Virus record (IMG/VR): IMGVR_UViG_3300029288_004207
Coordinates: 16,563-80,562 of that record
DNA from: a virus
Lineage: Duplodnaviria > Caudoviricetes
Direction: 5' to 3' (one strand)
Length of the DNA stretch: 64,000 nt
The translations under genes were made by a program, and so were the position numbers. The notes below the pieces were generated by a model. It worked only from the letters and a program-made list of their open reading frames with translations, searched no databases and was not told the DNA's origin. Positions 3,644-27,571 of the stretch are shown piece by piece (within the stretch, counting starts at the first letter, position 1; each line of letters begins with the position of its first letter).

Positions 3644-3751
3644 TTGAAAGCAAGACGTTCAGCCAAACAAAAAGCGGCTACCAAGAAAATGATTGCTGCC
3701 GCAAAACGTGCAAATCTCAAAGGTGGGAAAAATAAGCACGGTAAGGGCTAA
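3644..3751 (+). CDS. 35-aa highly basic peptide, putative DNA-condensing virion protein
   Basis: GGGGGT-10nt-TTG; (M)KARRSAKQKAATKKMIAAAKRANLKGGKNKHGKG; below the ORF-track cutoff. Confidence 0.6.
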   Translation: MKARRSAKQKAATKKMIAAAKRANLKGGKNKHGKG

Positions 3752-3851: not shown

Positions 3852-4490
3852 ATGCAGATGATTTTGGGTTGGCAAAACAGCCCCTTCATTCAGTGATGGA
3901 TGAAGCAAACCCATCTAAACGGGGGAAACCTGAAATGGCAATCCCGTACTAAGCAGAAAGAGAACCAATCTTTCGGGCATGTGTAACGACTTTACGGTGG
4001 GTATCTGTTTACAAGATAGATAAAGAGAAAGTCTGCTCTGCAACAAATTAACATCCCTTAATCTTCAGACTAAGTTGCAGTTAACACAAAGGTTAATTTT
4101 CGCAGCCATCTTCGTATATGTGGGCGTGAACCTGGAGCCTGGTCTTAACCAGACCGTAGCTACTATCACGACTCCGACATATTCCAGTGGCGTTGCCGGA
4201 CTCAACGGGGTAATCATGATTGTCTTTGCAGCCATAAGATATAAAATTGTGGCTTTGGGGAGTAATCTCCATTGTAAAACGCATCAAATTCGGGGAAGCC
4301 TAAACTCTTTTAAGAGCATGGTAATCGCCGAGCTAAGCAGGAAAGCTAATGCTTTCTGGGCATGTGGAGAGACTAGATGGTGCGCTTCCAATTTAAATTG
4401 GAAGATGGTATAGTCCGAACCTCATCTAAAGGTGAGTTGACATAACGGATAATCTTCGGAGTTGTCAAGCAAATGTCCGCCGCCGCCTAA
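3852..4490 (+). CDS. putative major coat protein, 67 aa, spliced from exons 3852-3869, 4093-4235 and 4448-4490
   Basis: Spliced product MQMILGLIFAAIFVYVGVNLEPGLNQTVATITTPTYSSGVAGLNGVIMIVFAAMIIFGVVKQMSAAA; two hydrophobic helices; GGAGGT RBS; strong promoter upstream and terminator downstream. Splicing is well supported, the coat function is inferred. Confidence 0.75.
3870..4092 (+). ncRNA. group I intron 1 (223 nt, ORF-less)
   Basis: P1 GGGU|UG with CAGCCC (U3869.G3880); P3 ACCCAUC 3909-3915 / GGUGGGU 3996-4002; P4 ACGGG/CCCGU; P7 GACUUU 3988-3993 / AAAGUC 4028-4033; P9 CUGCAAC/GUUGCAG; terminal G4092. Confidence 0.88.
4236..4447 (+). ncRNA. group I intron 2 (212 nt, ORF-less)
   Basis: P1 AGCCAU with GUGGCU (U4235.G4249); P3 CGCAUC 4280-4285 / GGUGCG 4379-4384; P7 GACUA 4371-4375 / UAGUC 4411-4415; P8 palindrome 4385-4404; P9 CUCAUC/GGUGAG; terminal G4447; removal restores the frame. 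Confidence 0.92.
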
Positions 4491-4516
4491 CAGAATACTT
4501 TCGCCTCAATAGAATT

Positions 4517-4556
4517 GGGGAGATACTTTAGAATTATTTTTGATATCTCCCCTTTT
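4517..4556 (+). terminator. intrinsic terminator after the coat gene
   Basis: GGGGAGATA...TATCTCCCC followed by TTTT. Confidence 0.65.
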
Positions 4557-4572
4557 CTTGTGCCAAAATCTA

Positions 4573-4601
4573 TTGACAAATAGACATAAGTATGATATAT
4601 T
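4573..4601 (+). promoter_or_regulatory. sigma70-type promoter
   Basis: TTGACA-17-TATATT. Confidence 0.65.
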
Positions 4602-4620
4602 ATATATGGAGGGAAGATAA

Positions 4621-4755
4621 ATGAAAGTAATGTTGATAAGAATAGATGAGAAAGACAAACAGTTATTGGAAATAGAGGCAAAAAAACTAGGTTTACCACT
4701 TACGGCTTATTGTCGCATGATATTATTAAAGAATTTACAGAAAGAGGATAAATAA
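4621..4755 (+). CDS. ribbon-helix-helix DNA-binding protein (44 aa)
   Basis: MKVMLIRIDEKDKQLLEIEAKKLGLPLTAYCRMILL: alternating beta strand plus two helices, typical RHH pattern; not in the ORF track. Confidence 0.75.
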   Translation: MKVMLIRIDEKDKQLLEIEAKKLGLPLTAYCRMILLKNLQKEDK

Positions 4756-5040
4756 ATGAAAACAATTCAACTAACAGATAATCAATATAAAGATTTACTT
4801 TGGTTTAAGAATTTCATGACTACTAAATTACGTGTTATAACAAATCAAGAAGTGATAAAAGTAATAGATGATTATCATTTGAATAAAGGAAAAACAGAGG
4901 GTGAATTTAAAAGAATACCTAAAGGCACAGATAGTAAAATGGATTACGAGCCAGAATATACATTTGGTCATTGTATACATGATATTATTGAATCCGTAAT
5001 GATAGAGCAGCAAACTGGGGAAGTAAATTATATTACTTAA
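4756..5040 (+). CDS. hypothetical protein, possible RHH-like N-terminus
   Basis: Coupled TAAATG start; MKTIQLTDNQYKDL. Confidence 0.6.
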   Translation: MKTIQLTDNQYKDLLWFKNFMTTKLRVITNQEVIKVIDDYHLNKGKTEGEFKRIPKGTDSKMDYEPEYTFGHCIHDIIESVMIEQQTGEVNYIT

Positions 5041-5050
5041 AAGATATTAA

Positions 5051-5908
5051 ATGGTGATAAGAAACGAATACGCTATCAATAAACAAAGGGAATCATTAAA
5101 GTTATTTTACCAAACAACTAAAGGTATTGCGTTTAAAAAACGATTAAGCGAACTTGCATCTAAAAATAAACCACATTTAGGGCATAATCATTCACCTGAA
5201 ACTATAGAAAAAATGCGTATCGCTAAATTAGGTAAAAAGATGTCGTTAGAAACTAGACAAAAAATGAGTGAAGCACAAATGGGAGAAAAACACCACATGT
5301 TTGGTAAACATTGTAGTCAAGAGGTTAAAAATAGAGTTAGTGATGGTTTAAGACGTTTATACCAAACTGCTAAAGGTAAAAAGATAAGGGAAATAGTTGA
5401 TAATGCTAATAAAGGCAATCATCATCATTTAGGTCATAAACATTCTGAAGAAGCATTAGAAAAAATGCGTAAGATAAAAACAGGTAAGGTGTTATCTGAA
5501 GAAACAAAAAATAAAATGCGTGAGTCACAAAAAGTTGTTTGGTCTAAGAGTATAGAATACAAAAACGAAAGAGTCGGTAATATAGTAAAAGGAAATAAAA
5601 ATACTAAATACCCTAATAAAAAAGAAACCATAATATTAAATATGTTGCAGGAATTACAACCCGACACTCGGTATTTTATAGGTGGTGGAGATGGATTAAA
5701 AGTCGGTGGTAAAATACCAGATATTTATAATGGTAAAGATAAACTTATAGAGCATTATGGTTATCACTGGCATCACAATCATAATCCGCAAGACCGCATT
5801 GACTTATTCGCTAAATATGGTTTTAAAACTTTAATTATTCAAGAGATGGATTTGATTAAACATCCAGATAAAGTAAGGGAACAATTGATAGCGTTTATAA
5901 ATAGTTAA
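5051..5908 (+). CDS. free-standing homing-type endonuclease: NUMOD3 repeats plus Vsr/DUF559-like (EDxHD-type) nuclease
   Basis: Repeated HLGHxHSxETxxKM motifs; C-terminal IPDI..KLIEHYGYHWH..GFKTLIIQE. Confidence 0.8.
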   Translation: MVIRNEYAINKQRESLKLFYQTTKGIAFKKRLSELASKNKPHLGHNHSPETIEKMRIAKLGKKMSLETRQKMSEAQMGEKHHMFGKHCSQEVKNRVSDGLRRLYQTAKGKKIREIVDNANKGNHHHLGHKHSEEALEKMRKIKTGKVLSEETKNKMRESQKVVWSKSIEYKNERVGNIVKGNKNTKYPNKKETIILNMLQELQPDTRYFIGGGDGLKVGGKIPDIYNGKDKLIEHYGYHWHHNHNPQDRIDLFAKYGFKTLIIQEMDLIKHPDKVREQLIAFINS

Positions 5909-5973
5909 AAAATAAGAGAAATAAACTTGTATTTTGGGGGAAAGCAATTTATAAAATACTAAAGGAAAGGGAT

Positions 5974-6201
5974 ATGACAAGAAAAATTCAAAGATTACTA
6001 GATAAAATAGCCAAGAGAGTTAAAGAGAATGAAAATAAACATGTCTGTGGTTCTCAAGGTTATGGATACGGATTAAATGATAGTTGCCCTGCATGTGAAA
6101 AACAAAATAAATATCATAAGATAATAAGGGTTGATGAAGATGTTAAAATGCCATCGTTATATGGTAGACATGGTATTAAAGAGAAACCAACGATAAGATA
6201 G
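5974..6201 (+). CDS. hypothetical protein with Cys/His motif
   Basis: AAGGAAAGG RBS; HVCG..CPAC. Confidence 0.55.
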   Translation: MTRKIQRLLDKIAKRVKENENKHVCGSQGYGYGLNDSCPACEKQNKYHKIIRVDEDVKMPSLYGRHGIKEKPTIR

Positions 6202-6232
6202 ATATAACGTCAAAATAAATATCTAAAACCCA

Positions 6233-6262
6233 TTGACTTTTACCATTACATAGCATTATAAT
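6233..6262 (+). promoter_or_regulatory. sigma70-type promoter
   Basis: TTGACT-18-TATAAT. Confidence 0.7.
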
Positions 6263-6273
6263 ATAAGTAATTG

Positions 6274-6315
6274 AGGCGAACTATCGTACCGAAATGGTGC
6301 GTGTTCGCCTTTTTT
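6274..6315 (+). terminator. hairpin plus U-tract directly after the promoter (leader terminator or small RNA)
   Basis: AGGCGAAC...GTTCGCCT TTTTT with an inner CGTACC/GGTGCG stem. Confidence 0.65.
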
Positions 6316-6343
6316 ATTAGTTAAAAATAGCAGGGAAAGATAA

Positions 6344-6478
6344 ATGAATTGTCCGAAATGTGGTCATAAAGCTATAAAGAATGGTACTCGCCAGATACGA
6401 CGTAAGGGAGTTAATGGTAAGAGGCAAAGTTATTTATGCACTTCTCCTAAATGCTGGTATCAGTGGGAAACAAGATAA
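6344..6478 (+). CDS. InsA-like Zn-ribbon protein (44 aa)
   Basis: MNCPKCGHKAIKNG...KRQSYLCTSPKC; not in the ORF track. Confidence 0.75.
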   Translation: MNCPKCGHKAIKNGTRQIRRKGVNGKRQSYLCTSPKCWYQWETR

Positions 6479-6605
6479 GCAAGTTACCCATTATATATAG
6501 GGGGATAAAAAAATGGGTAGAACTAGTCAGGCAGTATTATAAATCTTCGCTCGGAATATAGCCGTTAGTTGACAAATATAGCCAGAGTGTCTAAGGTTAA
6601 AGAAC

Positions 6606-7670
6606 ATGAAAATGATACGCACAGTCAAGATAAATAGCCCGGTAAATAAGGGTAAACTTCAAGGGATACGCGAGTTTCTTGTAGAGTACCAAAACTGTGT
6701 TAATTACTTCATTGCGAGACTGTGGAGCGAACAACGTTTTCGCGGCTCATATCTGGATAAACCCTATATAGCTTCGGCGCGGAAACGATTTAATCTCACC
6801 GCCCGTTTAATCCAGTGCGCGGGGAAACAAGCGTTTGAAGTTGTTAAGTCACAGCGTAAAAAAGATACCAAACAATTTCCAAGATTCAAGACACTATCGG
6901 CTACACTGGATAGCCGTTTTTGGTCAATTACTGATAACGAAAACACCTTTAATTGGTTAAAACTACAGTCAGGTTTTACTTACTTAATCCCGTTTACCAA
7001 GTCTAAACTTTGGGATAAGTGGCTTGAAAAAGGATTTATACTCTCCAAATCTATGCGAGTTAGTATCAGAAAAGATAAACTAGAGCTAGAGTTTTTCTTT
7101 GAGCATGAATCACCGGAACTTAAACCCATTGGAAACACCGAGGGATTAGATTTAGGGTACGTTAATCTAGCAACATGTTCTGATGGGCAGATGGTCGGCA
7201 TGAGATTAAATCAGTTTATCCGTACATTCCCCAAACGCAAAAAACATACACATAAGACTATAACAAACAAGGTTTATCAAGAGCTAAAATCCCTTGATTT
7301 AAGCAAGATTAACACACTTGTTTTAGAGAACCTTAAACGAGTAAAGCATAATACACGTGAGACGTTCTCACGAACACATAACAGGCGTTTATCTCATTGG
7401 CTATATGCCAAGGTGATTAGATGGTTGGAACAACGCTGTGAGGAACAGGGAATCCGCATAGAATACAAATCTCCCTGGAAAACTTCACAGAATTGTTCAG
7501 TCTGCCACAAATGGGATAAACGAAATCGTAACGGTGAAAGGTTTAAATGTGTAAACTGTGGGCATGAGGAACATGCGGACGTAATCGGCTCACAAAACCT
7601 CAAGTCGTTAGGATTGGCGGGAGTCTATAGTCTCCGTTTATTACCAACTCTTAATGGTGGGTGTCTATGA
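6606..7670 (+). CDS. tnpB: TnpB / Cas12f-like RNA-guided endonuclease, no tnpA adjacent
   Basis: RuvC-I GLDLG, RuvC-II VLENL, Zn finger CSVC..CVNC, RuvC-III HADVIGS; own promoter TTGACA-17-TAAGGT at 6569-6597. Confidence 0.92.
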   Translation: MKMIRTVKINSPVNKGKLQGIREFLVEYQNCVNYFIARLWSEQRFRGSYLDKPYIASARKRFNLTARLIQCAGKQAFEVVKSQRKKDTKQFPRFKTLSATLDSRFWSITDNENTFNWLKLQSGFTYLIPFTKSKLWDKWLEKGFILSKSMRVSIRKDKLELEFFFEHESPELKPIGNTEGLDLGYVNLATCSDGQMVGMRLNQFIRTFPKRKKHTHKTITNKVYQELKSLDLSKINTLVLENLKRVKHNTRETFSRTHNRRLSHWLYAKVIRWLEQRCEEQGIRIEYKSPWKTSQNCSVCHKWDKRNRNGERFKCVNCGHEEHADVIGSQNLKSLGLAGVYSLRLLPTLNGGCL

Positions 7671-8616
7671 ATGTCTACCATAAAGAGAACTATGAATGTA
7701 AATAAAGCTCATAAATTAGCAAGGTCTAAAGAACCTAGTTGGTTAAGGAGAAAAAGTTTATCGCAGATGTGGCGAGACTTAAAATGATATGGCTAAAAAG
7801 AAAAAGAAGGATGGGTTTCATAATTTGTTTGGTTTATTAAGTGAAAAGGATAAGAAATCACTTAAAAGAATAGCAGTAACAGGATTAACGAAAGGTAGGT
7901 GAGATAAAGTGAAAGACAAGAATCCTTGGGCAAATGTATCAAAAAAAGAACTGAAAGGCATGAAAAAGATTGCCATGACTGGTATGACTGGTGGTAAAGT
8001 CAAAAAACTCAAGTTGCCGAAGTAAAGTAATAAAGAATAAAATAATTAAGGGAGAAAGATAAAGTATGGCGAACAAAAAGATAACTTTTGGCGTAAGTTC
8101 AAGTGAAGTGAAACGAATGAGTAGAGATGTAAAAAGGGGTCTTACACAGTATAAGGGTAAGGATAAATTTGCCTTTAAATCTGTGGCAAATAGAAAACAG
8201 TGGTTTCCTAAAAATGGAAACAGCGGGTTGTAATATGGAGTGAAAAAATGGATTGGTTAAAACTTGATAAAGAAGCTGGACGTAAATTAAAAAAGTTGGA
8301 AAGCAAAGAAGGCAAAGTTGCGAAACGCCGACTTAAAGAGTTTACGTCCATAAGCCCTGCAAAGAAAAAGACCAAGTGGTATTACTAAGATGGGTAAGAA
8401 TTGTTCATACTCATTTAGTGAATACCAAAAAGGTGTTAAAAAACGGCAAAAGTCAATACGAGATTTTGACCGCCGTGAAAAAATTGGTATGAAAAAACTA
8501 AAGAGGCTTTGGAGATAATGGGTAAAAAAGAACGTAAGAAATGTGGTGGTAATCGGCATAATGTAAAAAGGGAAAGACGGCACGAAAGAGCCTTGAAAGA
8601 AAAACGCCACGAATAA
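7671..8616 (+). CDS. run of seven tiny Lys/Arg-rich ORFs: 7671-7787, 7789-7902, 7909-8025, 8066-8233, 8248-8388, 8390-8518, 8518-8616
   Basis: 32-55 aa each, abutting or overlapping start/stop codons, several with SD-like motifs; all below the ORF-track cutoff. Confidence 0.6.
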
Positions 8617-8630
8617 AGAGGTGAAAGTTT

Positions 8631-8891
8631 ATGGGTTTTATGGACAGAAAATATTCAAAAGCTGAAAAACAACAACTTAAAAGTGCTAAACAATCGCTCA
8701 AGAGACAGAAGCAACGGGAAAAACGCCATGAAAGTTTAGAAAAACTCCACGCCAAAACAGAAATGTATAAGGCAAAAGGTTCATTTTATAAAGCCAAGCA
8801 TGGGGCAAAACCACGCCCACTCTTTGATATTTCTATAGGGAAGAAGAAACAAGGTGGTAAAATCAAGCGTAGAAAAATTGGTTTATTATAA
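8631..8891 (+). CDS. small basic protein
   Basis: GAGGTG RBS; very K/R-rich. Confidence 0.7.
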   Translation: MGFMDRKYSKAEKQQLKSAKQSLKRQKQREKRHESLEKLHAKTEMYKAKGSFYKAKHGAKPRPLFDISIGKKKQGGKIKRRKIGLL

Positions 8892-8906
8892 AGTAGGTGA
8901 TATAAT

Positions 8907-9098
8907 ATGACTTACGCTTTACCAAGAAAAAAGAAATTTCCACTTAGGAATAAACAACAGGCTATATCGGCGGTAGCTTATGCCAAAAAGGGAGCAAAAG
9001 AAAGGACAATAACTCCCCAAGAACGTGATATCGTTTTAAGAAAAGTCCATGCTAAATATCCAAGTATTAACATAACTCCTATTAGAGGGAAAAAGTAG
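8907..9098 (+). CDS. small basic protein (YALP..KKFPL..A.SA.AY..V..KYP pattern recalled from phage proteins, DUF6582-like)
   Basis: AGGTGA RBS; family match is by eye only. Confidence 0.55.
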   Translation: MTYALPRKKKFPLRNKQQAISAVAYAKKGAKERTITPQERDIVLRKVHAKYPSINITPIRGKK

Positions 9099-9107
9099 AG
9101 GATTATT

Positions 9108-12100
9108 ATGGCCTTACCAGTTAATTTATTCGGTATTCCGATTAAACCTCCGCCTCCTACACCGCCTACACCGCCTACTACGCCTACGCCTGCACCTACT
9201 TATAGTCCAACACAGGTAGCTCAAAACATACAGCAGAAAGTACAACAAGCAGAAGCTACAGGTAAGACTTATGCGGAAGTAGCTAATGTTTCTCCTACAC
9301 CGCCTACACCGCCCACTACGCCTACGCCTGCACCTACTTATAGTCCAACACAGGTAGCTCAAAACATACAGCAGAAAGTACAACAAGCAGAAGCTACAGG
9401 TAAGACTTATGCGGAAGTAGCTAATGTTTCTCCTACACCGCCTACACCGCCTACTACGCCTACGCCTGCACCTACTTATAGTCCAACACAGGTAGCTCAA
9501 AACATACAGCAGAAAGTACAACAAGTGGAAGTAGCTAATGTTAAGGTTGTTGAACCAAGTAATATTATATATGTTTTAAAAACAACCAATCCTGATAAAT
9601 TTACAGTTCGTGTAGATAATGGGGATAATACCTACAAGCAAGTACAAATGAGCCGTCAAGAAATAATTGATGCTGGCGGGGAAATACCTGTTGTTGGCGA
9701 AGCGTGGAAAGAGATTAATAATCCGTTATCTAATAAAATGTTTTCTACCCCCAATGCTATTACAGAAACAGATATTAATAACGCTTATAAAGAACTTGGG
9801 TTAGAAATACCTGATTTTATATCAGCACCTCGCAATAAAAAGAACATGATTCTTGATGGTGATAATGCTGGTATGTTGGATGGTTTCTTTGATGAAGATG
9901 GTATAGCCTTGTATGAACATCCTGGGCAGTTTAGTAATGTAGAATCTGCTATAAAATATGAAAATACAATAAAAGACCCGATTGCTAAAGAAGCATGGGA
10001 AAATGCTTTTGTAGCTTATTGGGGTAAACTTCCTAGTGAAATAGTGTATACATTACCAAATGATAAGGAAAAAGCTATATCAGCTTTGGGTTATAAAAGT
10101 GTAGATGACCCTGAATTAGTTGCGTTATTAGAACGTTATAAGAGCAATCCAGAAGCCGAAGAATTTAAAACAGAAGCTAACGGTGGTACAATGTCTATTG
10201 CTAAAAAAACATTGTTATCATTCTTGGCTGATGTTCCTTACGATGCCGTCAAAGATTACCAGAGTAGTATTATTAGAGTTGGAACAGATATAACTTCAGG
10301 GACATTCTCACAAATGGTAGCCAGTGAATATGCCCGTAAGCATAATATGTCATTTGCTGATGTTTCTCAAATGATTCGTGATGCGGTTAATGGTAAAGAA
10401 AACGCTAACGTAAATAAATTGAGTGCTTCGGAAAAAGAAGCATTTAATAATTTAGTTACTCGTTGGAGTGCAGGTGCAGATTATATTACAAAGACTGAAG
10501 CAGATAATATAAAAGAATTAGACCCTGAAGGGTATGATTTATTACTCAAAAAAGGTTTAGATGCTTATCAATTAAGACAAGAAACGATTGCTAGTAGTTT
10601 TGAACCTTATGTACTCGCAACAGGCGCAGATGGTTCAAAACAATATGGTTTGATGAAGATGGTAGATGCTTATAACAAGAATGAGTTATCAAAAAAACAG
10701 ATTGAGTTAATTTTAGGTAAAGATGCATTAGATAAAATATTAAAGATATCCGATGAAGTTAATAGCATTAAAAAAGATTTTGAATCACAAATAGTGGATA
10801 CTCTGCCCCCAAATTTACAGGAGGATTATAGGAAAGGATTATCTAAGAATAATTTAGATGAGTTCCAAGAGAATTATCTTAGTTATATAACCAGCCAACA
10901 AGAAAGATACCAGAAATATCAAGATGCTGTTGATACTTTAACCGAATTAGGTTATAAGAAAATAATACCATCTTATAGTCCAACACAGGTAGCTCAAAAC
11001 ATACAGCAGAAAGTACAACAAGCAGAAGCTACAGGTAAGACTTATGCGGAAGTAGCTAATGTTTCTCCTACACCGCCTACACCGCATAATTTAGGTAATG
11101 CGCCTATATCAACTCAAGAACAAGCAACTCAATTTGTTGAAGGCGGTGTCGTTTACTATGATATCCCCTCTTATCTAAGAGATACCAAGACTAAAGATTA
11201 TAAAGTTAATCCTGTATCTGTATTGGTTTTAGAAAATCTTTTTGGCGGGGATAAAGAAGCGGCAAAACCAATCATAGATTCAGCACAAAAGCAACTTGAT
11301 TATTTATCAACTACTATAAACCATCTGCAAAATGATAAGTTAGATAATGCGCAAGTTGAAGCTCTAAGAAAAGCATTAATAGGAGTTGTAGGGCAACCTT
11401 TTAATGCAGATGAAGCATGGTTCTTAAATGCAGATGATTTAATGAAATTAAGGGCAGAAGCACCGGAATTACAAAGAGAATTAGATGATGCATTGGTTAA
11501 AACAAATGCAGAGCAATCATTAAAAGAGTTTTTAGGTAAATTATCGCAGGGTGATTTAGAAAAAGTTGCCGATATTTGGAGTTATGATGTAGAAAGATAT
11601 AGCCCGTTTGCTCAAACAGTAACGGCTTATAATGAAGCAATAAATAAAACACCATTAGCTAAATGGGCAAAAATGCCAGTATACTTTACTCCAGTTGGTA
11701 TGGGATTAGCTGCTACGGAATCTGTTGCCGGATTAGTTTCTCCATATACAATTTCTGATGAAGCTATAGTAAGACAAATTGATGATAACTATACTTATCT
11801 TAATTCAACGGATAAATTAGATGCTGAAGTAAATGATATTTTAGCAAAAGCGTTAAAAGATAACGATATTAAAGTTGATGAAGAAAATGCTTTACAAACC
11901 TACAAAAGCCTTGATGATTCTCAAAAAACAAAGGTTATAAAAGAATATACTCGTAATATGTTGGGATTAGACCCATCTGTTATGGATAAAATAATGACAG
12001 GTGCTATGGTTATAGCAGCAGCCATTGGTTTTAAAGGTCAAGTTTTAAACCCAATAGTTAGTAATATAATAAGTAAATACGGAATAAAAGCACCGGAATT

Positions 12101-18935: not shown

Positions 18936-19975
18936 TGAAAGAAATTACAAATAAAATATTAAGAGTGATAATCTCTACGTTTTTAGCGTTGGGGTTTGTT
19001 TTTATGTCACATACTCCCGTATTGGCAATATCAAATCCTGATACTATAGCGTTTGGTAGTAGTACCACATATTATAAGATATTTTATAATGTACTAGAAA
19101 ATGATGATTGGCTTATTGTGGCAGAAGGATATGTGTATTATGCCGTTCCACCAACTGATTATTCGGCAAGTGAGGCTTTTACTTTTGAACTTCTTTCTGC
19201 TGATGGACTAACAACTTATGCTGCAACTCCATTACAATCTTACGGTGATAGACCTATAGGAATTTATCTTTCGGCTAACCAAACTGCTACATTAGGATTA
19301 ACAATAGGTAGTGGCTATAAAGTGCGTATTATGGGCAACCCGCTTATATTTGCTTCACCGACAGGCAGTAGTGTTGATGCCACTTTAGGTTCTTCTAGTT
19401 ATATAGACCAATTGTTAGGTGATGATGGAGGTATTCCTACAAGTAATCCTTTAAGAAATGGGATGATAACTGTAGCGCAGAATATGGAAGCAAATGATAT
19501 TCCTATTGATTCCTATCTTGTTACAGTACAAGGTTATCAGTATTTATCGGTTGGCGGGGCTGATTTATTCTTAGAAGGGATACCTAGTTTGTCATTGATG
19601 TGTCCGATATTATTTTCTACTGGTATAGATGTTATAGAATCTGATGCTTCTGAATATACTGGTGCTTATGAACAAACTCTTAATCCATTACAAAAATGGG
19701 GTACTACGGTATCAAATGGATTAACTGCATTAGGCTCTTTTATGGGGATAAATCAAGCATTGGCTGGTAGTGTTGTATTATTCGTTATAGTTATTATGTT
19801 TGCTGTTTTTATTTATTCCAAAACAGAGAGTGGTATTACGGTATTGCTAATGGTTTCTGCAACGCCATTTTTAGGTGCATATTTAGGATTGATGCCGATG
19901 GCATTAGCTTTTATATTTGTTATTATTATAGTAACATTATTGGGGTACTTCTTTTTCTCCAGAGGTGCTTTATGA
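18935..19975 (+). CDS. membrane-anchored exported protein, putative virion envelope/end protein
   Basis: N-terminal signal peptide; three to four C-terminal TM helices. Confidence 0.65.
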   Translation: MKEITNKILRVIISTFLALGFVFMSHTPVLAISNPDTIAFGSSTTYYKIFYNVLENDDWLIVAEGYVYYAVPPTDYSASEAFTFELLSADGLTTYAATPLQSYGDRPIGIYLSANQTATLGLTIGSGYKVRIMGNPLIFASPTGSSVDATLGSSSYIDQLLGDDGGIPTSNPLRNGMITVAQNMEANDIPIDSYLVTVQGYQYLSVGGADLFLEGIPSLSLMCPILFSTGIDVIESDASEYTGAYEQTLNPLQKWGTTVSNGLTALGSFMGINQALAGSVVLFVIVIMFAVFIYSKTESGITVLLMVSATPFLGAYLGLMPMALAFIFVIIIVTLLGYFFFSRGAL

Positions 19976-22677
19976 GTTTATTTAATAGATTCAAAAAGGC
20001 TTTTATAATAGCATTTATATTAACGATTTGTACTGCTGGCGTAGTATATGCTGCTTGGGAATATAAATATCCAACAATAATTACAGATAATTCATCTGTA
20101 ACGAGAACTTATGTTCCTGTAGTATTGGGATGGAAAGGGCAAACATTTGTAGATGCTGGCAAGATAAATTCATCTGCTAATAATACTAATATGCAAATAG
20201 GCGGAACATCACTTAAATATATGATAGCTACGGATAATGTCGCTTGTGTGATTCCAAGTTTAGGGGGTAATGGACAGCAGACTGTTGATTTTTATACAGG
20301 ATATTCACCTATACAAACATCATTTCCAATAGTTCTTGGTAATGATGGTTATGTTTCTATAAAAGATAATGTTGGAATAGAGTTAGGTTTAAATAGTACA
20401 AGCATCTTTAATGGTTATTTGGATACTACGGCTGCGGCATCCCGCTACGATGTGAAGAAACTTGGGGCATTTATAGCCGGAATAAGCACGACTACAGCAG
20501 GCACGGTTGAGGCATCGGTTTATAATGTTTGGCCTATTATTGCCGCATCTGGCACTAGTTCATCAGCTTCCGGCACTTCACATGCTGTTTCCGTAGGCTC
20601 GCCGACCGTGGGGGAACTCTCGGTAATATTTGCTAATTATTACAGTTTGGTCAATTCACCGACTATCACTTGGGCAAGCGACTATATTGAAATATTCCAA
20701 AAAACATCAAATGACGGTGCTGGTCATTATCAAACATCCGGCGCCGCTTACAAAGTAGCAACAGGTTCAGAAGGCGCAAGTGTGACTGTGACTACGAGTG
20801 TTGCGTCTACAGGTACTTATGGCTATTATCGCATTACAGCAGGTACTTATTCTACGTATATCACATCCGGCACGGCGGCAACTGGAAATTCAGTTAATCC
20901 TAACCCTCCGTCTTGCACATCAACCTATGTCAATGCTAATTGTCTCTATATCGCTGTTTCTGCCAGTACCTACAACGGAGTAACAACCCACTCCGTGTTG
21001 AGCTATCCTACAAATTATACTATCGGACAGATTACAGGACAGGTAGCCGGAAGTGGTGCCATAGGTATAGCTTCGTATTATCTGAATACCTCCAGTGCTG
21101 ACCCTGGAACATTTGCACTTAGTGGGTCTAACCCTTGGATAGCTCAGACCATCTGTATCTACCCCGGCAAAGCAACTGCCAGCGCAACGGGCATTACGAG
21201 TGGCGAGATGAAACGGACGTATACCATATCACCAGCTACAACCGATGTCTCGGAAACTTTTGAGTGGGGGGCTGATGGAAACTCACTGGCGACTTCTGGC
21301 GGGTCTGTGACATGGACAGTGTCGGTAGCGGGTACGAGTAAGGCAGAGATTGATACGGCACAATATTATAGTGGGTCACGTTCTGCAAGATTTTATAGAG
21401 ACGGCTCTAATAACCCAACGGCATATTTTTCTCAGTTTGTTTTGAGCTCATCACAATATGTGAGTTTTTATATTCGTAAGGACACAAATTCATACTATCA
21501 AATCGCACATGGGAATGGTTCTTATAGAGCAGTTGTCAGAATCACAGACGGCGAGGTAGTCTGTTACAGTGCTAGTGCAGTTAGCACAGGAATTTTGATA
21601 GCAGCCGATACTTGGTACAAGTTGGCTTTATCCAACTTTAATTGGACTTCTCATACATTTGACATATATATGAATGACTCTTTAATATATACTAACGCTA
21701 CTATGGATGCATCGGCTTCTTCAAGCGGACAGGTAGTTATCAATAATTTAGCCGGCACCTCGGAACTTTGGGTTGACGATATTATGACTGGAACGAATCC
21801 GTCTGTAAATATCTATATAGATGACGTGCTTAAAGACACCGAATATTTAACGAGTGGTGTGCCGGACAATACACAGAATTACCAGATGTTAACAGATGCA
21901 CCTTATACAGATAATGTAACCTTATCAGTTAATGGAACACAGCAATTATATTATTCACCTTCAGAAATGATAAAAGGAAAAACCTATTCTACGGGAAATG
22001 TATCATTAACAAATGGGGATGCAACTGTAACTGGTACTGGAACTACATGGGTGAGTTCAATGGCAGGTGGCATCTTTTATTCAACTGGTGGCGCAACGGA
22101 CAATGTGACTTATGAAATAAGTAGTATTACAGATACAACTCATCTGGAATTAACAACTGTGTATGGCGGGACTACAAATAGTAGCCAAACTTATGCTATG
22201 TATGCTCGTATACCTGATGAAGAAGCAACTGGAGGGGATAATAGTGGAGCAGTGGTTTGGGGAAGTAATTCTAATGTAGTTATAAGCTACGGTGAAATGG
22301 TAAGTTATGCGAGTACCAGCGCAAGTACAAATGAAACATTGATAGGTTTTAATTCACCAGATTCGCCTTTGCCTTCTACTTGGTTTGCAAGTGGGGAAAA
22401 TATAGAGAATCTACCATTTTATGATTCATTTATAGGGGTTTCAGCCAGTACTGGTCAACCTATTCAGACAATTTACTTTATTGCTATAATAGGTTTTGCT
22501 TTTGGAGCTTTTTTATTATTAACTATGTTTACTAGGTCAGCGTTATTAGGTGCAATCGGATTTAATGTTGTATTATTTATAGGTAGTAGTATGACGATAA
22601 TACCGATGTGGATACCATTCGCGACTTTAATTGTTATGTTGGGCATAATGTATCTTTATAGGCAGGTGGCATATTAG
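19972..22677 (+). CDS. 901-aa spike/adhesin-like protein (beta-rich, LamG-like segment, C-terminal TMs)
   Basis: Signal peptide, S/T/G-rich beta ectodomain, GTGTTW motif, three C-terminal hydrophobic helices. Confidence 0.65.
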   Translation: MSLFNRFKKAFIIAFILTICTAGVVYAAWEYKYPTIITDNSSVTRTYVPVVLGWKGQTFVDAGKINSSANNTNMQIGGTSLKYMIATDNVACVIPSLGGNGQQTVDFYTGYSPIQTSFPIVLGNDGYVSIKDNVGIELGLNSTSIFNGYLDTTAAASRYDVKKLGAFIAGISTTTAGTVEASVYNVWPIIAASGTSSSASGTSHAVSVGSPTVGELSVIFANYYSLVNSPTITWASDYIEIFQKTSNDGAGHYQTSGAAYKVATGSEGASVTVTTSVASTGTYGYYRITAGTYSTYITSGTAATGNSVNPNPPSCTSTYVNANCLYIAVSASTYNGVTTHSVLSYPTNYTIGQITGQVAGSGAIGIASYYLNTSSADPGTFALSGSNPWIAQTICIYPGKATASATGITSGEMKRTYTISPATTDVSETFEWGADGNSLATSGGSVTWTVSVAGTSKAEIDTAQYYSGSRSARFYRDGSNNPTAYFSQFVLSSSQYVSFYIRKDTNSYYQIAHGNGSYRAVVRITDGEVVCYSASAVSTGILIAADTWYKLALSNFNWTSHTFDIYMNDSLIYTNATMDASASSSGQVVINNLAGTSELWVDDIMTGTNPSVNIYIDDVLKDTEYLTSGVPDNTQNYQMLTDAPYTDNVTLSVNGTQQLYYSPSEMIKGKTYSTGNVSLTNGDATVTGTGTTWVSSMAGGIFYSTGGATDNVTYEISSITDTTHLELTTVYGGTTNSSQTYAMYARIPDEEATGGDNSGAVVWGSNSNVVISYGEMVSYASTSASTNETLIGFNSPDSPLPSTWFASGENIENLPFYDSFIGVSASTGQPIQTIYFIAIIGFAFGAFLLLTMFTRSALLGAIGFNVVLFIGSSMTIIPMWIPFATLIVMLGIMYLYRQVAY

Positions 22678-23546
22678 TGGGTCTTAAAGCTGGATGGTTA
22701 GCGTTATTTATCTTTGTATGGATAATTGGTGCGTTCTTAGGTTCTACCTTTGAATACCAATCATCTTCAGGTGATGCTGGTTTAGCCTATACTACAGGTA
22801 CGGCTACTTTTGTAACTGATAGCCGTTGGGTAACAAGTGGTGGTGGCGCAACTTGGAATACATCAATGGAAGATGGAAATATCAAAGCTAATGCTGATAC
22901 ATCATGGACAAAAATCAAGCATGTAGGCGGTGCTTATTTATATAGCGGTACTGGTATAGTAGATAATACCCCTTTAACCCTTGATGTTGGGGTAAACGGA
23001 ATTACTGTAGACCATCTTGGATTATTATATATTGTAATTCCTGTTGGTAATACTGGAACGGCGGCAAGTAATGTTTGTACGGTAAATGGAAGCCCTGTAG
23101 CATTAGTGGCAGGAGTAAACGAAATTTCAACTTCAGGCGCAACTGGTTTAATTACGATAACTATTGTTGGTACAACGCAAATATATCTTTATTCACCCTA
23201 TCTTGGGGCTGGTGGCGCAGGAGTGGATTATACAATGGCAGTAAGTCCTGGGTGGGCAGGTACGGGTAGTGGTGGGTACGACCAAAACCCTATCACTACA
23301 TTGAATTATTTAATTAATCTCTCAAATGCTTTCCAAAAATTACCAGTATTGGGAAATATTCCATTACCTGTTCCTAATCCAGAATATTTTAAATCTGCTT
23401 TCAAAGTTGTAACATGGCAATGGTCATTTTTGAATGATTATGCTATGTTCTATTGGATATTCTGTGTTCCTTTTGTGGTTATGGGTGTGCTTAGTATGAT
23501 ATTATTAGTTTACGGGATAATCAGTGGAAACTTGGACATAGGTTGA
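22677..23546 (+). CDS. membrane-anchored beta-rich protein, putative minor virion protein
   Basis: N- and C-terminal TM helices, Gly/Thr-rich ectodomain. Confidence 0.6.
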   Translation: MGLKAGWLALFIFVWIIGAFLGSTFEYQSSSGDAGLAYTTGTATFVTDSRWVTSGGGATWNTSMEDGNIKANADTSWTKIKHVGGAYLYSGTGIVDNTPLTLDVGVNGITVDHLGLLYIVIPVGNTGTAASNVCTVNGSPVALVAGVNEISTSGATGLITITIVGTTQIYLYSPYLGAGGAGVDYTMAVSPGWAGTGSGGYDQNPITTLNYLINLSNAFQKLPVLGNIPLPVPNPEYFKSAFKVVTWQWSFLNDYAMFYWIFCVPFVVMGVLSMILLVYGIISGNLDIG

Positions 23547-23863
23547 TGAAAGTTAGTTTAAAACAGCAAGAACAAGAATTAAGAAATCAGGCTAAGAAGC
23601 GTGGTTTAAAAATAAGATATACCCCACAACTTAAAAAAACACCTTATCGTGCAATGAATCCGATGGCATCAAAAGAACTAGGTATTAAGTGTGGTAAAAA
23701 TATTATTGGTTATACGAAAAATTCAGCGAGAACTAAAAGACGTTTTGTTATGGATATGAGACATGAAATAATAGAATACGATACGATGAAAAAACGAAAG
23801 TTACATTATCCTAAAGCGCATAAAATAGCTAATAGAAAACAAAGAACTGTCGGATATATCTAA
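23543..23863 (+). CDS. basic protein with HExxE...YxxAHxxA motif
   Basis: RHEIIEY..LHYPKAHKIA; zincin-like motif, function unknown. Confidence 0.5.
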   Translation: MMKVSLKQQEQELRNQAKKRGLKIRYTPQLKKTPYRAMNPMASKELGIKCGKNIIGYTKNSARTKRRFVMDMRHEIIEYDTMKKRKLHYPKAHKIANRKQRTVGYI

Positions 23864-23888
23864 ATATTGTGTTTGCGCAACAGGCTAC

Positions 23889-23918
23889 TTGACAAATATA
23901 TAGGTATATGTATATAAT
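23889..23918 (+). promoter_or_regulatory. sigma70-type promoter of the ATPase operon
   Basis: TTGACA-18-TATAAT. Confidence 0.75.
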
Positions 23919-23967
23919 ATAAGAAAATTAGTCGGCGGTCAGCGTAGAAACTAAATAAGGTGGGTTC

Positions 23968-24525
23968 ATGAGTATACAAACTTTTATAGTATTGGTATGT
24001 ATTCTTTTAATGGGGATGGCTTGGTATGCTAATACAAGTAAAAGGGATAAGATATTAATAAGGTACAGACGAAAAAACAAAACACTAATTACTAAATTTG
24101 TTAGTATGCACAAAAAAGACCCACAACACGTTATATTTGATAATCTTCAATTTGATATTATTCCTCATTGTATAGTCTTTCAACATTACAAAAACGGTTT
24201 TATTCACATGCTATTTCCAATTTTTGTTCCCACGCTAGATTTTACTTGGAACTCTCGGTATCCTTTAGACCCCAATACTTTAGAACCTGTTATTATCAGT
24301 CCTGAAGTTAGGGCGGTTATGGATAAAGAAGAATGGATGAAATCTATGGCAAAACATACCGCACCACCATCTACCACTAAAAAACAAACCGTATTTCAGC
24401 AGTATTTACCTTGGATACTTTGTGGTGTGGCAGTATTAGGTATTTTTTATCTTTATACACAAGTAGCTGAATTAAAATCTTGGGCGGAAGCTATGCAGAA
24501 TAATTTTAATGCTATAGCCAAGTAG
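23968..24525 (+). CDS. membrane protein (N- and C-terminal TM)
   Basis: Two hydrophobic segments. Confidence 0.65.
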   Translation: MSIQTFIVLVCILLMGMAWYANTSKRDKILIRYRRKNKTLITKFVSMHKKDPQHVIFDNLQFDIIPHCIVFQHYKNGFIHMLFPIFVPTLDFTWNSRYPLDPNTLEPVIISPEVRAVMDKEEWMKSMAKHTAPPSTTKKQTVFQQYLPWILCGVAVLGIFYLYTQVAELKSWAEAMQNNFNAIAK

Positions 24526-24534
24526 GAGTAAATA

Positions 24535-25050
24535 ATGGCTGATAAAAATGAGTATGACGGTGAAGAAGAATTAGAGCTTGAAGAAGATAATCAGGAAGAA
24601 TCAGAAGATGATGGGGTTCTTGATTATGATGAAGAAGCGCAAGTATTACCAGAACGCAAGATAAGTCTTGATGCAGTCCAAACTTCAAAAGAAGATGCTG
24701 GAGGTGAGGATGAAGAAGCATCGGTAAGGACTGATTTACAAGCTGGTATAAAAACAATAACGCCAAAATTTTCTAATAAGAGATTAAATGAAATACTACA
24801 GCCTATAATGCTATCAGATATTCCATCTGAACAATATATGGATTACGTTAATATGCTTTCGGTAATGTTTATGGAAGAATCTTATGATAATCCACAGGTA
24901 GATTTCATGTCTATATTGACATCAGTTAATGTAGCGGTCTCTCTTGGGCATCAAAAGAAACATGTGATAGATGTACTTGAAATGTTTGGTGCTGCCAGAG
25001 AGGATGAAATGGAAATGAAAAAATTAAGCCAGCAAATATTGGGGAGTTAA
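24535..25050 (+). CDS. acidic hypothetical protein
   Basis: AGGAG RBS; D/E-rich N-terminus. Confidence 0.7.
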   Translation: MADKNEYDGEEELELEEDNQEESEDDGVLDYDEEAQVLPERKISLDAVQTSKEDAGGEDEEASVRTDLQAGIKTITPKFSNKRLNEILQPIMLSDIPSEQYMDYVNMLSVMFMEESYDNPQVDFMSILTSVNVAVSLGHQKKHVIDVLEMFGAAREDEMEMKKLSQQILGS

Positions 25051-25057
25051 AGATTAG

Positions 25058-25963
25058 ATGGTTGCACTTAAAAACCCTGAAGCACCAGCAAGTAAAAAGC
25101 AACTGCATAAATTGGGGGAGTTGCTTAATGTAGATACAAGCAATTTTAAATTAACAATGCAACAATCATGGGATTTGATTGAATCTTTAAGTTCTGCTTT
25201 GGGAGATAATACAGAATCTATTGAAGATTTAGAATCATTAGATAATGATAACGCTTTTAGCGAAGCACATGTTCAAATTGTAGAGGGAGACCAGCGTGGC
25301 GGTAAATCTGTCTATGCTGTTAAAACGATTAAAGAAGATTGGTTAAAAGATGCCGTAAGGATATTCTGCGAAAAAGAACTAGGCATGAAATGTGAAGTTA
25401 TAATGTATTTTAGAAAAACTAGGTCAGCAAAAATAAAGATAACGTCATTTATTGAAACAAATACAGCACAATCAGATTTACAATATATAGGTAAAACTAT
25501 TTATATCAAAATACCAGAAGATTATAAATTACATTCCCCCAAAAGGATATTCAGTAATATTTATATACTTGGTATCCCATTTTATTATATATCTTCATTC
25601 AGGGAAGCACTTAGGTTACTTAAAAAAGGTTTTATTAGAAATGGATGGTTGCTGTTGGATGAGGCGCATCGTGGCATGAGCGCAAGAAATGGTATGTCAA
25701 AAATGGGTAAAGAATTTGTAGGGGAAATATATCAGTTTGGTAAATCGTTATTAGATGTTATTATAATTACACATCATGCTATAATGATAGAATCATTAGC
25801 TAGACTTATTCCTACAAAAAGAGTATATTGTTCTTATAATAAGAGAACAAAGAAAGTAAGTTGCCAAATCAGGGAAAAAGGTATTGAGGGAACTTTAGTA
25901 AAAGAATTTTATGCACCTGATTGGTGGGATAGTTATTATACTAACCAAAAGATAAGAGCGTAG
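25058..25963 (+). CDS. Zot/pI-like morphogenesis (extrusion/packaging) ATPase
   Basis: Walker A GDQRGGKS, Walker B LLLDEAH..SAR, then GKSLLDVIIITHHAIMIESLAR, matching the RHxxxDIIxxTQxxxxIDxxxR pattern; no TM seen. Confidence 0.75.
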   Translation: MVALKNPEAPASKKQLHKLGELLNVDTSNFKLTMQQSWDLIESLSSALGDNTESIEDLESLDNDNAFSEAHVQIVEGDQRGGKSVYAVKTIKEDWLKDAVRIFCEKELGMKCEVIMYFRKTRSAKIKITSFIETNTAQSDLQYIGKTIYIKIPEDYKLHSPKRIFSNIYILGIPFYYISSFREALRLLKKGFIRNGWLLLDEAHRGMSARNGMSKMGKEFVGEIYQFGKSLLDVIIITHHAIMIESLARLIPTKRVYCSYNKRTKKVSCQIREKGIEGTLVKEFYAPDWWDSYYTNQKIRA

Positions 25964-25964
25964 A

Positions 25965-26714
25965 ATGAAAAAAAGAAATATTATTTTAATTGCAAGCCTT
26001 ATTATAATATTGGTATTAACTGGTTGTGTAACAGAAAATCTTGAGCAAGATTTATATACACAGAATGTTTATCCGATTACAGGCAATACTTATAATGTAG
26101 GTAGTACAACATTACCTTATCTTAACGGGTATTTCACTGATTTGTATGTTGCAGATGATTTAGAAGTAACGAATGATGTAAACATCGGTGGAGGGTTGGA
26201 TGTTGATGTAATTATAGGGCAGAATATACAAGTTACTGGTAAAGTAGAAGCTGATAGGTTAATTGGGGATGTTGAAGGATATTCTATTGATGTTGTACAA
26301 GTATCTGATTACAATATAGCGTTAAATGATACGTTATCTTTAGTTTTTCTTTTTATACCCGATGTTATAGTAGTTGATTATTCTGGTAGGGTACAGCATG
26401 ATACTACACTAGAGGATGGGCATACTACTGGTCATTGTCAGGTGGATATTACTGGTATTAATACCATGACATGTAACAATAATTATACAGCATTATTTGA
26501 TGATAATGGGGTTATTGGTTCTCAATATGGGCAAAATGATGTTGTAAATACAGTATTAATTTATGGTGGGAATGATGGAGTTGACGAATCATATATTTTG
26601 GGAGTGGGAACTTGGACTACGGCAACTAAAACATTAAAAATAACATTTAGCACAATTGCGAACACTAATGATGCAACAAATTATATTGAAATAATGGCAG
26701 TTGCTTACAGATAA
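25965..26714 (+). CDS. lipoprotein with fibre-like beta repeats
   Basis: Lipobox LTGC (Cys21); DLYVADDLEVTNDVNIGGGLDV. Confidence 0.6.
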   Translation: MKKRNIILIASLIIILVLTGCVTENLEQDLYTQNVYPITGNTYNVGSTTLPYLNGYFTDLYVADDLEVTNDVNIGGGLDVDVIIGQNIQVTGKVEADRLIGDVEGYSIDVVQVSDYNIALNDTLSLVFLFIPDVIVVDYSGRVQHDTTLEDGHTTGHCQVDITGINTMTCNNNYTALFDDNGVIGSQYGQNDVVNTVLIYGGNDGVDESYILGVGTWTTATKTLKITFSTIANTNDATNYIEIMAVAYR

Positions 26715-27114
26715 GGAGAATAGTGCAATGACCTTTTGGATATTATTAGCTCTAGCAGGTTTTCTAACTTTTTTATCGGTAAGATACTTTAATTTCTGGT
26801 TATCCGCTTGTGGTGCATTAGCGTGGATATTGTTATGGTGGTATAACACACAATATCCCCCCACCAATATAGCAGTAAACTCGTTTGGACATCAAATATT
26901 ATATTATTTATTCATAATGCTTGCCATAGGGACATTTTTTAATTGGGTAAGGAATAGGGATAGATTACCAAGCGGATATACAAGAACCGCAAAAGAACAG
27001 GCTGAATACGAAAGTGATTATAAGTCTGCTTCCAATGGTGAGATAGATGAAAGAATAGCTTATCATGATAAGGTTCAAAAAGCGTTAAGAACTGGAAAAT
27101 ATCATCGGAGATAA
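26701..27114 (+). CDS. three-TM membrane protein
   Basis: Hydrophobic helices; probable start at the ATG after AAGGAG. Confidence 0.65.
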   Translation: MLTDKENSAMTFWILLALAGFLTFLSVRYFNFWLSACGALAWILLWWYNTQYPPTNIAVNSFGHQILYYLFIMLAIGTFFNWVRNRDRLPSGYTRTAKEQAEYESDYKSASNGEIDERIAYHDKVQKALRTGKYHRR

Positions 27115-27117
27115 CTA

Positions 27118-27366
27118 ATGGAGAGTTATAAAATAACACCAAGGGGTAGAATGTATGCACAAAATATTTATGCCCCTAGAACTGCTGGATACAAAGTACT
27201 ATGGTTACTTAATCATAGAGATGAATTAAGTAAAGACCAAATATATAAGGAAGTACCCGATGCTTCATGGCATACTTTAAGAAAATTAAGGAAATTAGGT
27301 GCTATACAGATTGTAGCAAGCACAACGGAGGTTGGCTATGGGAATATTGGACAGTCTAGTTGGTAA
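27118..27366 (+). CDS. possible winged-helix protein
   Basis: YKITPRG..KVLWLL..LSKDQI..LRKLRKLGAI pattern. Confidence 0.45.
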   Translation: MESYKITPRGRMYAQNIYAPRTAGYKVLWLLNHRDELSKDQIYKEVPDASWHTLRKLRKLGAIQIVASTTEVGYGNIGQSSW

Positions 27367-27571
27367 GAAAAAACAAACCACCGAAGAAATAGAGGCTGAA
27401 ACAGAAAGGCTTGAAGCTGAAGATAGAAAAGCTGGATTTGAACTATCAATACAGCAAAAAAGATGGGCGGCACAGGAATTAAAATCTAGGGGAGTAAGTG
27501 CTAGAAGTTTTGGTAATACTAATGAAGATGGGACTTGGCAAAAGATAATCTCTTGGCTTCGCACACATTGA
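27332..27571 (+). CDS. small coiled-coil protein
   Basis: GGAGGT RBS; EEIEAETERLEAE. Confidence 0.6.
   Translation: MAMGILDSLVGKKKQTTEEIEAETERLEAEDRKAGFELSIQQKRWAAQELKSRGVSARSFGNTNEDGTWQKIISWLRTH

Follow-up and report, generated by a model that had tools for sequence, protein, structure and literature searches.

Which kind of element encodes, on one stretch of DNA, a small hairpin protein that looks like a coat, a row of membrane-anchored proteins, an ATPase of the Zot type and a family B DNA polymerase (PolB), all with bacterial expression signals? This question is raised by the IMG/VR virus record IMGVR_UViG_3300029288_004207, of which we analysed a window of 64,000 nucleotides (64 kb), i.e. 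bases 16563-80562 of a single contig of 80,562 bp with 33 % GC. The 16.5-kb part of the contig upstream of the window (designated L001) was scanned too, making 80.5 kb in all, and every open reading frame (ORF) longer than about 150 amino acids (aa), together with many smaller ones, was searched by Pfam and PHROGs. A preliminary description of the window had proposed that the block at 3852-27571 has an archaeal-virus-like architecture and belongs to an undescribed lineage of large viruses. We found that the architecture is real, i.e. that the window holds a conserved, non-tailed, membrane-based morphogenesis module with bacterial signals (Table 1). We further consider it probable that this module belongs to a new lineage of non-tailed, membrane-assembled double-stranded DNA (dsDNA) viruses, of about 50-105 kb, of uncultured bacteria.

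The module is a syntenic block present in many uncultured elements. The order of the genes encoding the coat, the tiny ORFs, the giant protein, proteins A, B, C, D and E, the ATPase, the small transmembrane (TM) proteins and the GT2/GtrA and GT-C glycosyltransferases was kept in at least eight independent metagenome contigs of 47-97 kb. The hairpin gene and the tiny ORFs stand directly upstream of the giant gene in every relative, and the first genes of the glycosylation island keep their synteny with the structural module. Coat and giant genes are about 1 kb apart in the relatives; here, NUMOD3 and TnpB insertions lie between them. Public metagenomes contain at least 29 clusters of the ATPase and about 90 clusters of the coat, and coat homologues were found on contigs of up to 106 kb. 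No relative of protein A, of the ATPase or of PolB was found among GenBank phages, the ATPase had no match among the 72,556 plasmids of PLSDB, and nothing was found in IMG/VR with the ATPase, its alignment or the coat. No description of the lineage was retrieved by literature searches, whose coverage was restricted to open-access texts and which are therefore no proof of novelty.

The coat gene is interrupted twice. Joining of exons 3852-3869, 4093-4235 and 4448-4490 gives a helix-loop-helix protein of 67 aa, and the two sequences removed are group I introns, which were missed by Rfam scans of the whole window and detected only in a local search. In this search, intron 1 matched Intron_gpI with 45.4 bits (E 2.5e-10), just below the gathering score of 50, and intron 2 with 71.7 bits (E 3e-18), above that score. 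The exon joins are confirmed by a 236-aa paralogue encoded on the same contig (L001:15225-15935), since the alignment of its N-terminus with the full length of the coat (46 % identity, E 9e-15) spans both of them. Additionally, an intron-less allele of 67 aa, with 99 % amino acid identity, occurs in other metagenomes on contigs of 58, 75 and 83 kb, and the alignment of the two genes at the DNA level displays two gaps at the intron positions, the 18-nucleotide (nt) exon 1 being shifted by the aligner. The two-helix coat candidate of the preliminary description is thus confirmed by the paralogue, the intron matches and the intron-less alleles. A microRNA match returned by the Rfam scan at the terminator hairpin of the coat unit was discarded as spurious.

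When compared with the intron-less allele, the coat gene differs at 50 of its 204 nt, with 43 synonymous codon changes and a single non-synonymous one, and in the pair of elements that share the 99 %-identical coat the neighbouring genes are only 44-58 % identical. The same trend was obtained by the database search with the coat profile, in which the clustered proteins (59-73 aa) were 66-99 % identical and their neighbouring genes 41-60 %. As nearly all changes are synonymous while the neighbours have diverged, the hairpin gene is under extreme purifying selection, far stronger than that on any other gene of the lineage, as would be expected if its product forms a lattice. A related locus (L017) encodes an exported protein of 493 aa whose C-terminal anchor is another coat-like hairpin. 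In nearly all aligned members of the coat family, the loop (window 4130-4200) has a Thr/Ser run after an Asn-x-Thr motif, and the combination with GT-C enzymes encoded nearby suggests glycosylation of the coat itself.

In order to compare the coat with known capsid proteins, a profile of fusellovirus VP1/VP3 was built from seven sequences and aligned with the coat profile using hhalign. The match had a probability of 80.9 % (E 1.2e-5) and spanned both helices and the loop. With the same VP1/VP3 profile, unrelated ORFs of the window with two TM helices gave 4 % and 0.1 %, the reversed profile 1.4 %, and VP21 of His1 only 5.9 %. Among 200 shuffles preserving the helix-loop-helix layout, the mean score was 15.8 +/- 3.6 and the maximum 32.6, the real coat scoring 35.0. 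These values are suggestive of a likeness to VP1/VP3 without being proof of it, and a fusellovirus-like coat would tilt the expected particle shape towards spindle or pleomorphic. The coat did not match His1 VP21 (hhalign 2.5-9 %), and one of the 25 coat family members touched the Pfam model His1_capsid (PF25665), at E 0.06; a His1_capsid lead from the ESM Atlas (11 % of a neighbouring cluster) failed both the Pfam and the hhalign tests and was abandoned. With M13 pVIII the probability was 0.06 %, the coat being a two-helix hairpin and not of the single-helix pVIII type.

The ATPase is encoded next to protein E. It matched a single Pfam family, Zot, with 25.3 bits for a cutoff of 20.3, and its best match in the PDB, by sequence profile as well as by fold, was the N-terminal domain of Zot (2r2a), to which its AlphaFold2 (AF2) model (predicted local distance difference test, pLDDT, 79) aligned in Foldseek with a template modelling score (TM-score) of 0.66. 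Comparison with M13 pI by hhalign gave 95 % probability (E 2.7e-8), and inovirus Zot proteins ranked on top when a viral structure library was searched, so that the Zot/pI-like nature announced for this ATPase was recovered by every approach. The 37-kDa protein of plasmavirus L2 was also among the structural matches (E 1.6e-5), with a low TM-score (0.33), and the ATPase of His1 (ORF16) is unrelated. According to Roux et al. (PMC6813254), a true inovirus pI has 1-2 TM domains and is encoded among inovirus genes; by these criteria, we classify the ATPase as a relative of inovirus pI and not as a member. Residues 1-65 (25058-25250) form a conserved two-helix extension (model helices at residues 13-23 and 34-47), which is absent from shorter homologues of 232-244 aa (L018, L023 and L026) and may be a DNA- or partner-binding module.

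The remainder of the module is rich in exported and membrane proteins. The preliminary description had counted at least six candidates bearing a signal or TM segment, and these were recovered as proteins A, B, C and D, the lipobox protein and the product of 26701-27114, on the basis of an N-terminal signal or anchor and/or C-terminal TM helices. Protein A, with 55-60 % full-length identity to its relatives, is the most conserved of the large module proteins. The ectodomains of B and C are variable, the C-terminal TM anchors of A, B and C are conserved, and B is a candidate spike or receptor-binding protein. The giant protein combines a triplicated, Pro/Thr-rich N-terminal repeat with a C-terminal domain conserved in the relatives. 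By self-BLAST, three near-identical Pro/Thr-rich units of about 46 codons were located at the start of its gene (9154-9525) and a fourth one 1.8 kb downstream (10972-11085). Just N-terminal to the most conserved part of the giant protein lies an intein with canonical features (Cys1, His-Asn/Cys+1, NUMOD3-type endonuclease insert), the host of which is here a structural, non-replication protein. The tiny Lys/Arg-rich ORFs are candidate DNA-condensing proteins. Searches of PDB sequences with B, the giant protein and PolB returned intein and NUDIX matches only, or none, and a search of the ESM Atlas with protein A was uninformative.

PolB (543 aa) matches phrog_11768 (E 8e-16) and has a family of 585 representatives. 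The Pfam scan of the window's own PolB gave no match and 2 of 46 relatives matched PF03175; the family profile aligned with the protein-primed PolB (pPolB) of His1 over 410 columns (99.2 % probability, E 2.5e-19). Motif C reads STDG and not the canonical DTD, D408 alone being invariant, and PolB has no intact N-terminal exonuclease, an exonuclease-like domain with a weak match to PF10108 being encoded by a separate gene. From these motifs and matches, PolB is best classed as a divergent polymerase of the protein-primed type. It had been listed with the genes of 3852-27571; the polymerase is real, but its gene lies outside this block, at 58235-59866 on the minus strand. In two further lineages, L008 (74 % PolB identity) and L034 (46 %), the PolB gene is a direct neighbour of genes for spikes, for a hairpin of 65-70 aa and for a giant protein, so that an association of the replication module with the structural one is seen in three lineages. 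Protein-primed polymerases go with linear genomes that have inverted terminal repeats and a terminal protein; no such repeats are present in this possibly incomplete contig, and in L010 and L011 only 58 nt separate the end of the PolB gene from that of the contig.

Neither Pfam nor PHROGs yielded a capsid, portal, terminase or lysin family for any of the scanned ORFs of the 80.5 kb. The lack of tailed-phage and lysis genes claimed for the 64-kb window therefore extends to the rest of the contig, where no HK97 capsid, portal or terminase gene was found, with the exception of two weak PHROG tail matches considered below. A 90-aa ORF with 19.7 bits to a terminase PHROG was rejected as too short for a terminase. 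The Pfam results for the same ORFs contained no relaxase, VirB4/VirD4-type ATPase, coupling protein of type IV secretion systems, partition protein or plasmid Rep, and no tRNA gene was found in the contig or in 11 related loci.

Promoters were scored as TTGACA-N16-18-TATAAT with at least 11 of 12 positions matched, and compared with simulations. We counted 20 such sigma70 sites, five of them perfect, for 6.1 +/- 2.2 in the simulations, i.e. a threefold enrichment; the sites checked (coat, D and padR) are operon starts, and a Shine-Dalgarno (SD)-like motif precedes about 60 % of the genes. The bacterial expression signals reported at the outset are thus well founded. A bacterial host is indicated by these promoters together with the Sec signals, the lipobox, the group I introns, DgkA, TelA, the ISL3 transposase and the FtsH of relatives. 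The latter, found in relatives of 75-83 kb (L029/L030 6387-8333), is a full-length FtsH-type AAA protease (AAA and Peptidase_M41) encoded 1.7 kb upstream of the coat, an unusual cargo that could possibly serve as a marker for tracing hosts. The ISL3 transposase is nearest to those of Firmicutes, and the best plasmid matches of the insertion sequence (IS) transposases, in Firmicutes and mixed phyla, are below 50 % identity; with a GC content of 33 % and IS relatives this distant, no host can be named. The wall-less host of the Dehalococcoides type put forward in the preliminary description is at most a conjecture. A Lutibacter metagenome-assembled genome was rejected as host, as the link consisted of a single short contig (3.3 kb, at 0.8x coverage) and as promoter and SD signals of this sort are foreign to Bacteroidota.

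Taken as a virion-building operon, the stretch would specify spindle-shaped, pleomorphic or filamentous particles with neither icosahedral head nor tail. The hairpin coat would be made abundantly from its consensus promoter once the two group I introns have been spliced out, and would become the main protein of the coat or envelope by insertion into the cytoplasmic membrane. Sec would export proteins A, B and C, which would stay attached through their C-terminal TM anchors and whose variable ectodomains would serve in adsorption or as spikes. The Thr/Ser-rich loop and linkers would be glycosylated on the outer membrane face by a polyprenyl-phosphate-sugar pathway (GT2-GtrA and GT-C). The small basic proteins and the giant protein may accompany the DNA, which would be copied by the divergent protein-primed-type PolB and the separate exonuclease, and the soluble pI/Zot-type ATPase may power the assembly of DNA and coat at the membrane, with non-lytic release by extrusion or budding.

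Such a combination resembles several known families without fitting any of them. In Fuselloviridae (SSV1 VP1/VP3), as here, the coat is a protein of about 70-90 aa in which a Thr/Ser-rich loop connects two hydrophobic helices; the structural proteins of these viruses are inserted in the membrane and their release is non-lytic. They differ by their archaeal hosts, by circular genomes of 15 kb replicated without PolB, and by the absence of the pI-type ATPase, giant protein and glycosylation island of this element. The gene plan of His1 (Halspiviridae), i.e. a capsid protein with two TM helices followed by signal-plus-anchor proteins, a glycosyltransferase and a pPolB, is similar, whereas His1 has an archaeal host and a genome of 14.5 kb with inverted terminal repeats, which this contig lacks. 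The analogy with His1 drawn in the preliminary description therefore holds for gene architecture and PolB but not for the coat, which does not match VP21, nor for the ATPase, which has no similarity to ORF16. Inoviridae (Tubulavirales) share the homologous ATPase domain, the absence of lysis genes, and the location of the ATPase gene at the end of a block encoding small or anchored membrane proteins, as in M13 genes VIII-III-VI-I. In contrast, their genomes are circular single-stranded DNA (ssDNA) of 5-15 kb, while here about 80 kb encode PolB, a soluble ATPase and a hairpin coat. Inoviruses replicate by the rolling-circle mode, and no rolling-circle Rep family was found in the 80.5-kb contig. 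Virions of Plasmaviridae (L2) and Pleolipoviridae are membrane vesicles with a core set of spike, small membrane protein and NTPase (PMC5867852, PMC5882103), and some Pleolipoviridae use a pPolB, as would this element; their genomes are of 7-17 kb, the match of the ATPase to the L2 protein is the low-scoring one given above, and no sequence homology between structural proteins was found, no search aimed at it having been made. That the hairpin coat shares ancestry with the capsid protein of archaeal spindle viruses, and the ATPase with pI of filamentous phages, the two being brought together in large bacterial dsDNA viruses, is a tentative proposal, and one that we doubt somewhat more than we believe.

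Several observations weigh against a viral lineage, or at least against its present support. It is known from genes alone, no particle having been seen, and the database class of the source, 'virus record', is a classification and not proof of a particle. Neither direct nor inverted terminal repeats were found in the 80.5-kb contig, the completeness of which is unproven. No TM segment was detected in the ATPase (25058-25963) or in its aligned relatives. Two of the 200 shuffles of the coat reached a probability of at least 50 % against a VP1/VP3 profile that is short and hydrophobic and with which the coat itself reaches 81 % only, and the AF2 model of protein A, computed from an alignment of 8 sequences, had a pLDDT of 52 and was unusable for fold searches. 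Weak tail signals were given by phrog_167 (tape measure) on residues 1333-2359 of the giant protein, a coiled-coil region (E 6e-13), and by phrog_1980 (tail fibre) on 74 residues of protein B (672-745, E 2e-7). Finally, conjugative pilins have the same architecture as the 67-aa hairpin, and the ArdC gene, five IS or TnpB elements and the broad range of sizes would suit a plasmid no less than a virion able to hold genomes of different lengths.

The main alternative is a mobile element that is not a virus, resembling a plasmid or transmitted through vesicles or a new type of mating apparatus, in which the hairpin would be a pilin-like or membrane-remodelling subunit, proteins A-C adhesins, and the ATPase the motor of secretion or pilus assembly. 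The hairpin equals VirB2/TraA-type pilins in size and topology, ArdC with its MPTase-PolyVal domain, PadR, TelA/vWA and several IS are typical plasmid cargo, no particle gene of known fold was found, and the elements range from 47 to 106 kb. Yet none of the relaxase, VirB4/VirD4-type ATPase, partition or plasmid Rep families was found among the ORFs scanned in the 80.5 kb, the ATPase is unmatched in PLSDB, all methods place it closest to the morphogenesis proteins of inoviruses, and the coat profile resembles a viral capsid family; we hold this explanation to be unlikely, though it deserves serious attention. An archaeal virus whose bacterial-looking signals are a coincidence of an AT-rich genome would agree with the DUF2206 and TFIIS-type zinc ribbon matches, with the His1-related pPolB and with the fusellovirus-like coat profile. 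Moreover, the names of the source contigs resemble those of sample series from landfills and sediments, where methanogens would be plentiful. An archaeal virus is difficult to reconcile with the threefold enrichment of -35/-10 consensus sites and the position of those checked at operon starts, with the lipobox, DgkA, TelA and Firmicutes-nearest ISL3 transposase, with FtsH in the relatives, and with the two group I introns and NUMOD3 endonucleases, which are not known from archaea or archaeal viruses, and we judge it highly improbable. We give even less credence to a tailed phage whose head genes are off the contig or too divergent, the giant protein being its tape measure and A-C its baseplate or fibre proteins, as the two PHROG tail matches and the absence of terminal repeats would allow. 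Unlike tail proteins, A, B, C and D all have a signal peptide and TM anchors, the tape-measure match falls on coiled-coil repeats, the search for a lysin was negative, and the hairpin and tiny ORFs precede the giant gene in every relative. Furthermore, every soluble ORF of 280 aa or more in the 80.5 kb is annotated, which leaves none for a terminase, portal or capsid.

Among bacterial dsDNA viruses of this size, only tailed or icosahedral ones are known, spindle-shaped or pleomorphic virions are regarded as a hallmark of archaeal viruses, and the pI ATPase as that of small filamentous ssDNA phages. If the coat and the ATPase do share ancestry with the spindle-virus capsid protein and with pI, a virion design regarded as archaeal only and the inovirus motor would be united in one bacterial group, with particles of variable capacity (50-105 kb) and a protein-glycosylation pathway of its own. 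A bacterial lineage that joins a fusellovirus-like coat, a pI-type motor, a pPolB and a glycosylation island would make the bacterial and archaeal virospheres less distinct, would provide a candidate link between the assembly of inoviruses and spindle viruses, and would reveal that virus mining based on capsid markers misses whole groups. The 67-aa coat and the ATPase provide specific markers for hosts and particles.

Table 1. Features of the window, in order of position (L001 refers to the contig part upstream of the window).
Feature	Position	Strand	Remarks
IS/TnpB elements	1065-2009	-	
	6606-7670	+	
	48825-49748	-	
	L001 5883-7163	-	
Sigma70-type promoter of coat unit	3566-3594	+	TTGACA-17-TATAAT, 12/12 match
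Mini-ORF 5' of coat gene	3644-3751	+	35 aa, highly basic: 13 Lys + Arg (K+R), no Asp/Glu
Coat exon 1	3852-3869	+	6 codons; GGAGG 11 nt upstream
Group I intron 1	3870-4092	+	U at end of 5' exon, G at end of intron; Rfam Intron_gpI
Coat exon 2	4093-4235	+	
Group I intron 2	4236-4447	+	Rfam Intron_gpI; fold z -3.0
Coat exon 3 and stop codon	4448-4490	+	
Intrinsic-terminator-like hairpin and T-run	4505-4562	+	End of coat unit; read from sequence
Insertions between coat and giant genes	5051-7670	+	NUMOD3 homing endonuclease 5051-5908; TnpB 6606-7670
Tiny Lys/Arg-rich ORFs	7671-9098	+	e.g. 8631-8891: 28 K+R in 86 aa
Giant protein, 3275 aa	9108-18935	+	Coiled-coil repeats; NUDIX 15522-15839; HAD phosphatase 16035-16343
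Intein, 377 aa (residues 2728-3104)	17289-18419	+	Pfam Intein_splicing, PT-HINT; PDB inteins
Protein A	18935-19975	+	Signal peptide, ectodomain, 3-4 C-terminal TM helices
Protein B	19972-22677	+	Signal peptide; ectodomain variable; C-terminal 150 aa conserved and containing 3 TM helices
Protein C	22677-23546	+	N-terminal anchor; conserved C-terminal half with one TM helix
Basic protein, 106 aa	23543-23863	+	29 K+R; 61 % identical to gene beside L008 hairpin gene
Protein D	23968-24525	+	Conserved, 2 TM; own 12/12 promoter at 23889
Protein E	24535-25050	+	Conserved, soluble; directly 5' of ATPase gene
P-loop ATPase	25058-25963	+	Soluble; Walker A at residue 77, Walker B near residue 198
Lipobox (LTGC) exported protein	25965-26714	+	Variable in relatives
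Small proteins	26701-27571	+	Conserved membrane protein 26701-27114; small proteins 27118-27366 and 27332-27571
Glycosylation island	27637-46776	+	
First genes of the island		+	GT2-GtrA-methyltransferase 27637-29319; DgkA 29925-30278; GT-C/TMEM260-like 31821-33536; EpsG-like 33800-35479
Replication operon	58235-61199	-	PolB 58235-59866; 191-aa protein 59863-60438; exonuclease-like 60440-61000; promoter at 61199

The mobile load of the contig comprises two IS1595 transposases, one TnpB, one ISL3, the two group I introns and the intein, and such a heavy load for a virus-like genome argues against a tight limit on packaging size. The left end of the contig (L001 1-127) opens with two 60-bp tandem repeats, and L001 contains two pairs of direct repeats, of 354 bp (140-493/1396-1748, 96 % identical) and 309 bp (5537-5845/10110-10415, 99 %); these repeats could be of the origin, telomere or regulatory type. 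L001 further encodes ArdC (anti-restriction and MPTase-PolyVal domains; 8818-9678, minus strand) and a PadR-vWA-TelA block (11144-15120, plus strand), the vWA protein of which strongly matches the phage family phrog_7371 (E 1.5e-43).

Between the glycosylation island and the PolB operon, two large exported proteins are encoded (52924-55722 and 55922-58129), one with Big_2 and an InlB B-repeat, a Pro/Thr linker and a TM anchor, the other with metallophosphatase, DUF2341 and LamG domains, and they may be factors of host-envelope remodelling or adsorption. The window also encodes a radical-SAM protein (phrog_9298) and a PAPS-reductase-like protein (47957-48793 and, on the minus strand, 62733-63638), and a DpdA homologue is present in the close relative L008 (3272-4030); these three proteins hint at a DNA modification system of the 7-deazaguanine or sulfur type.

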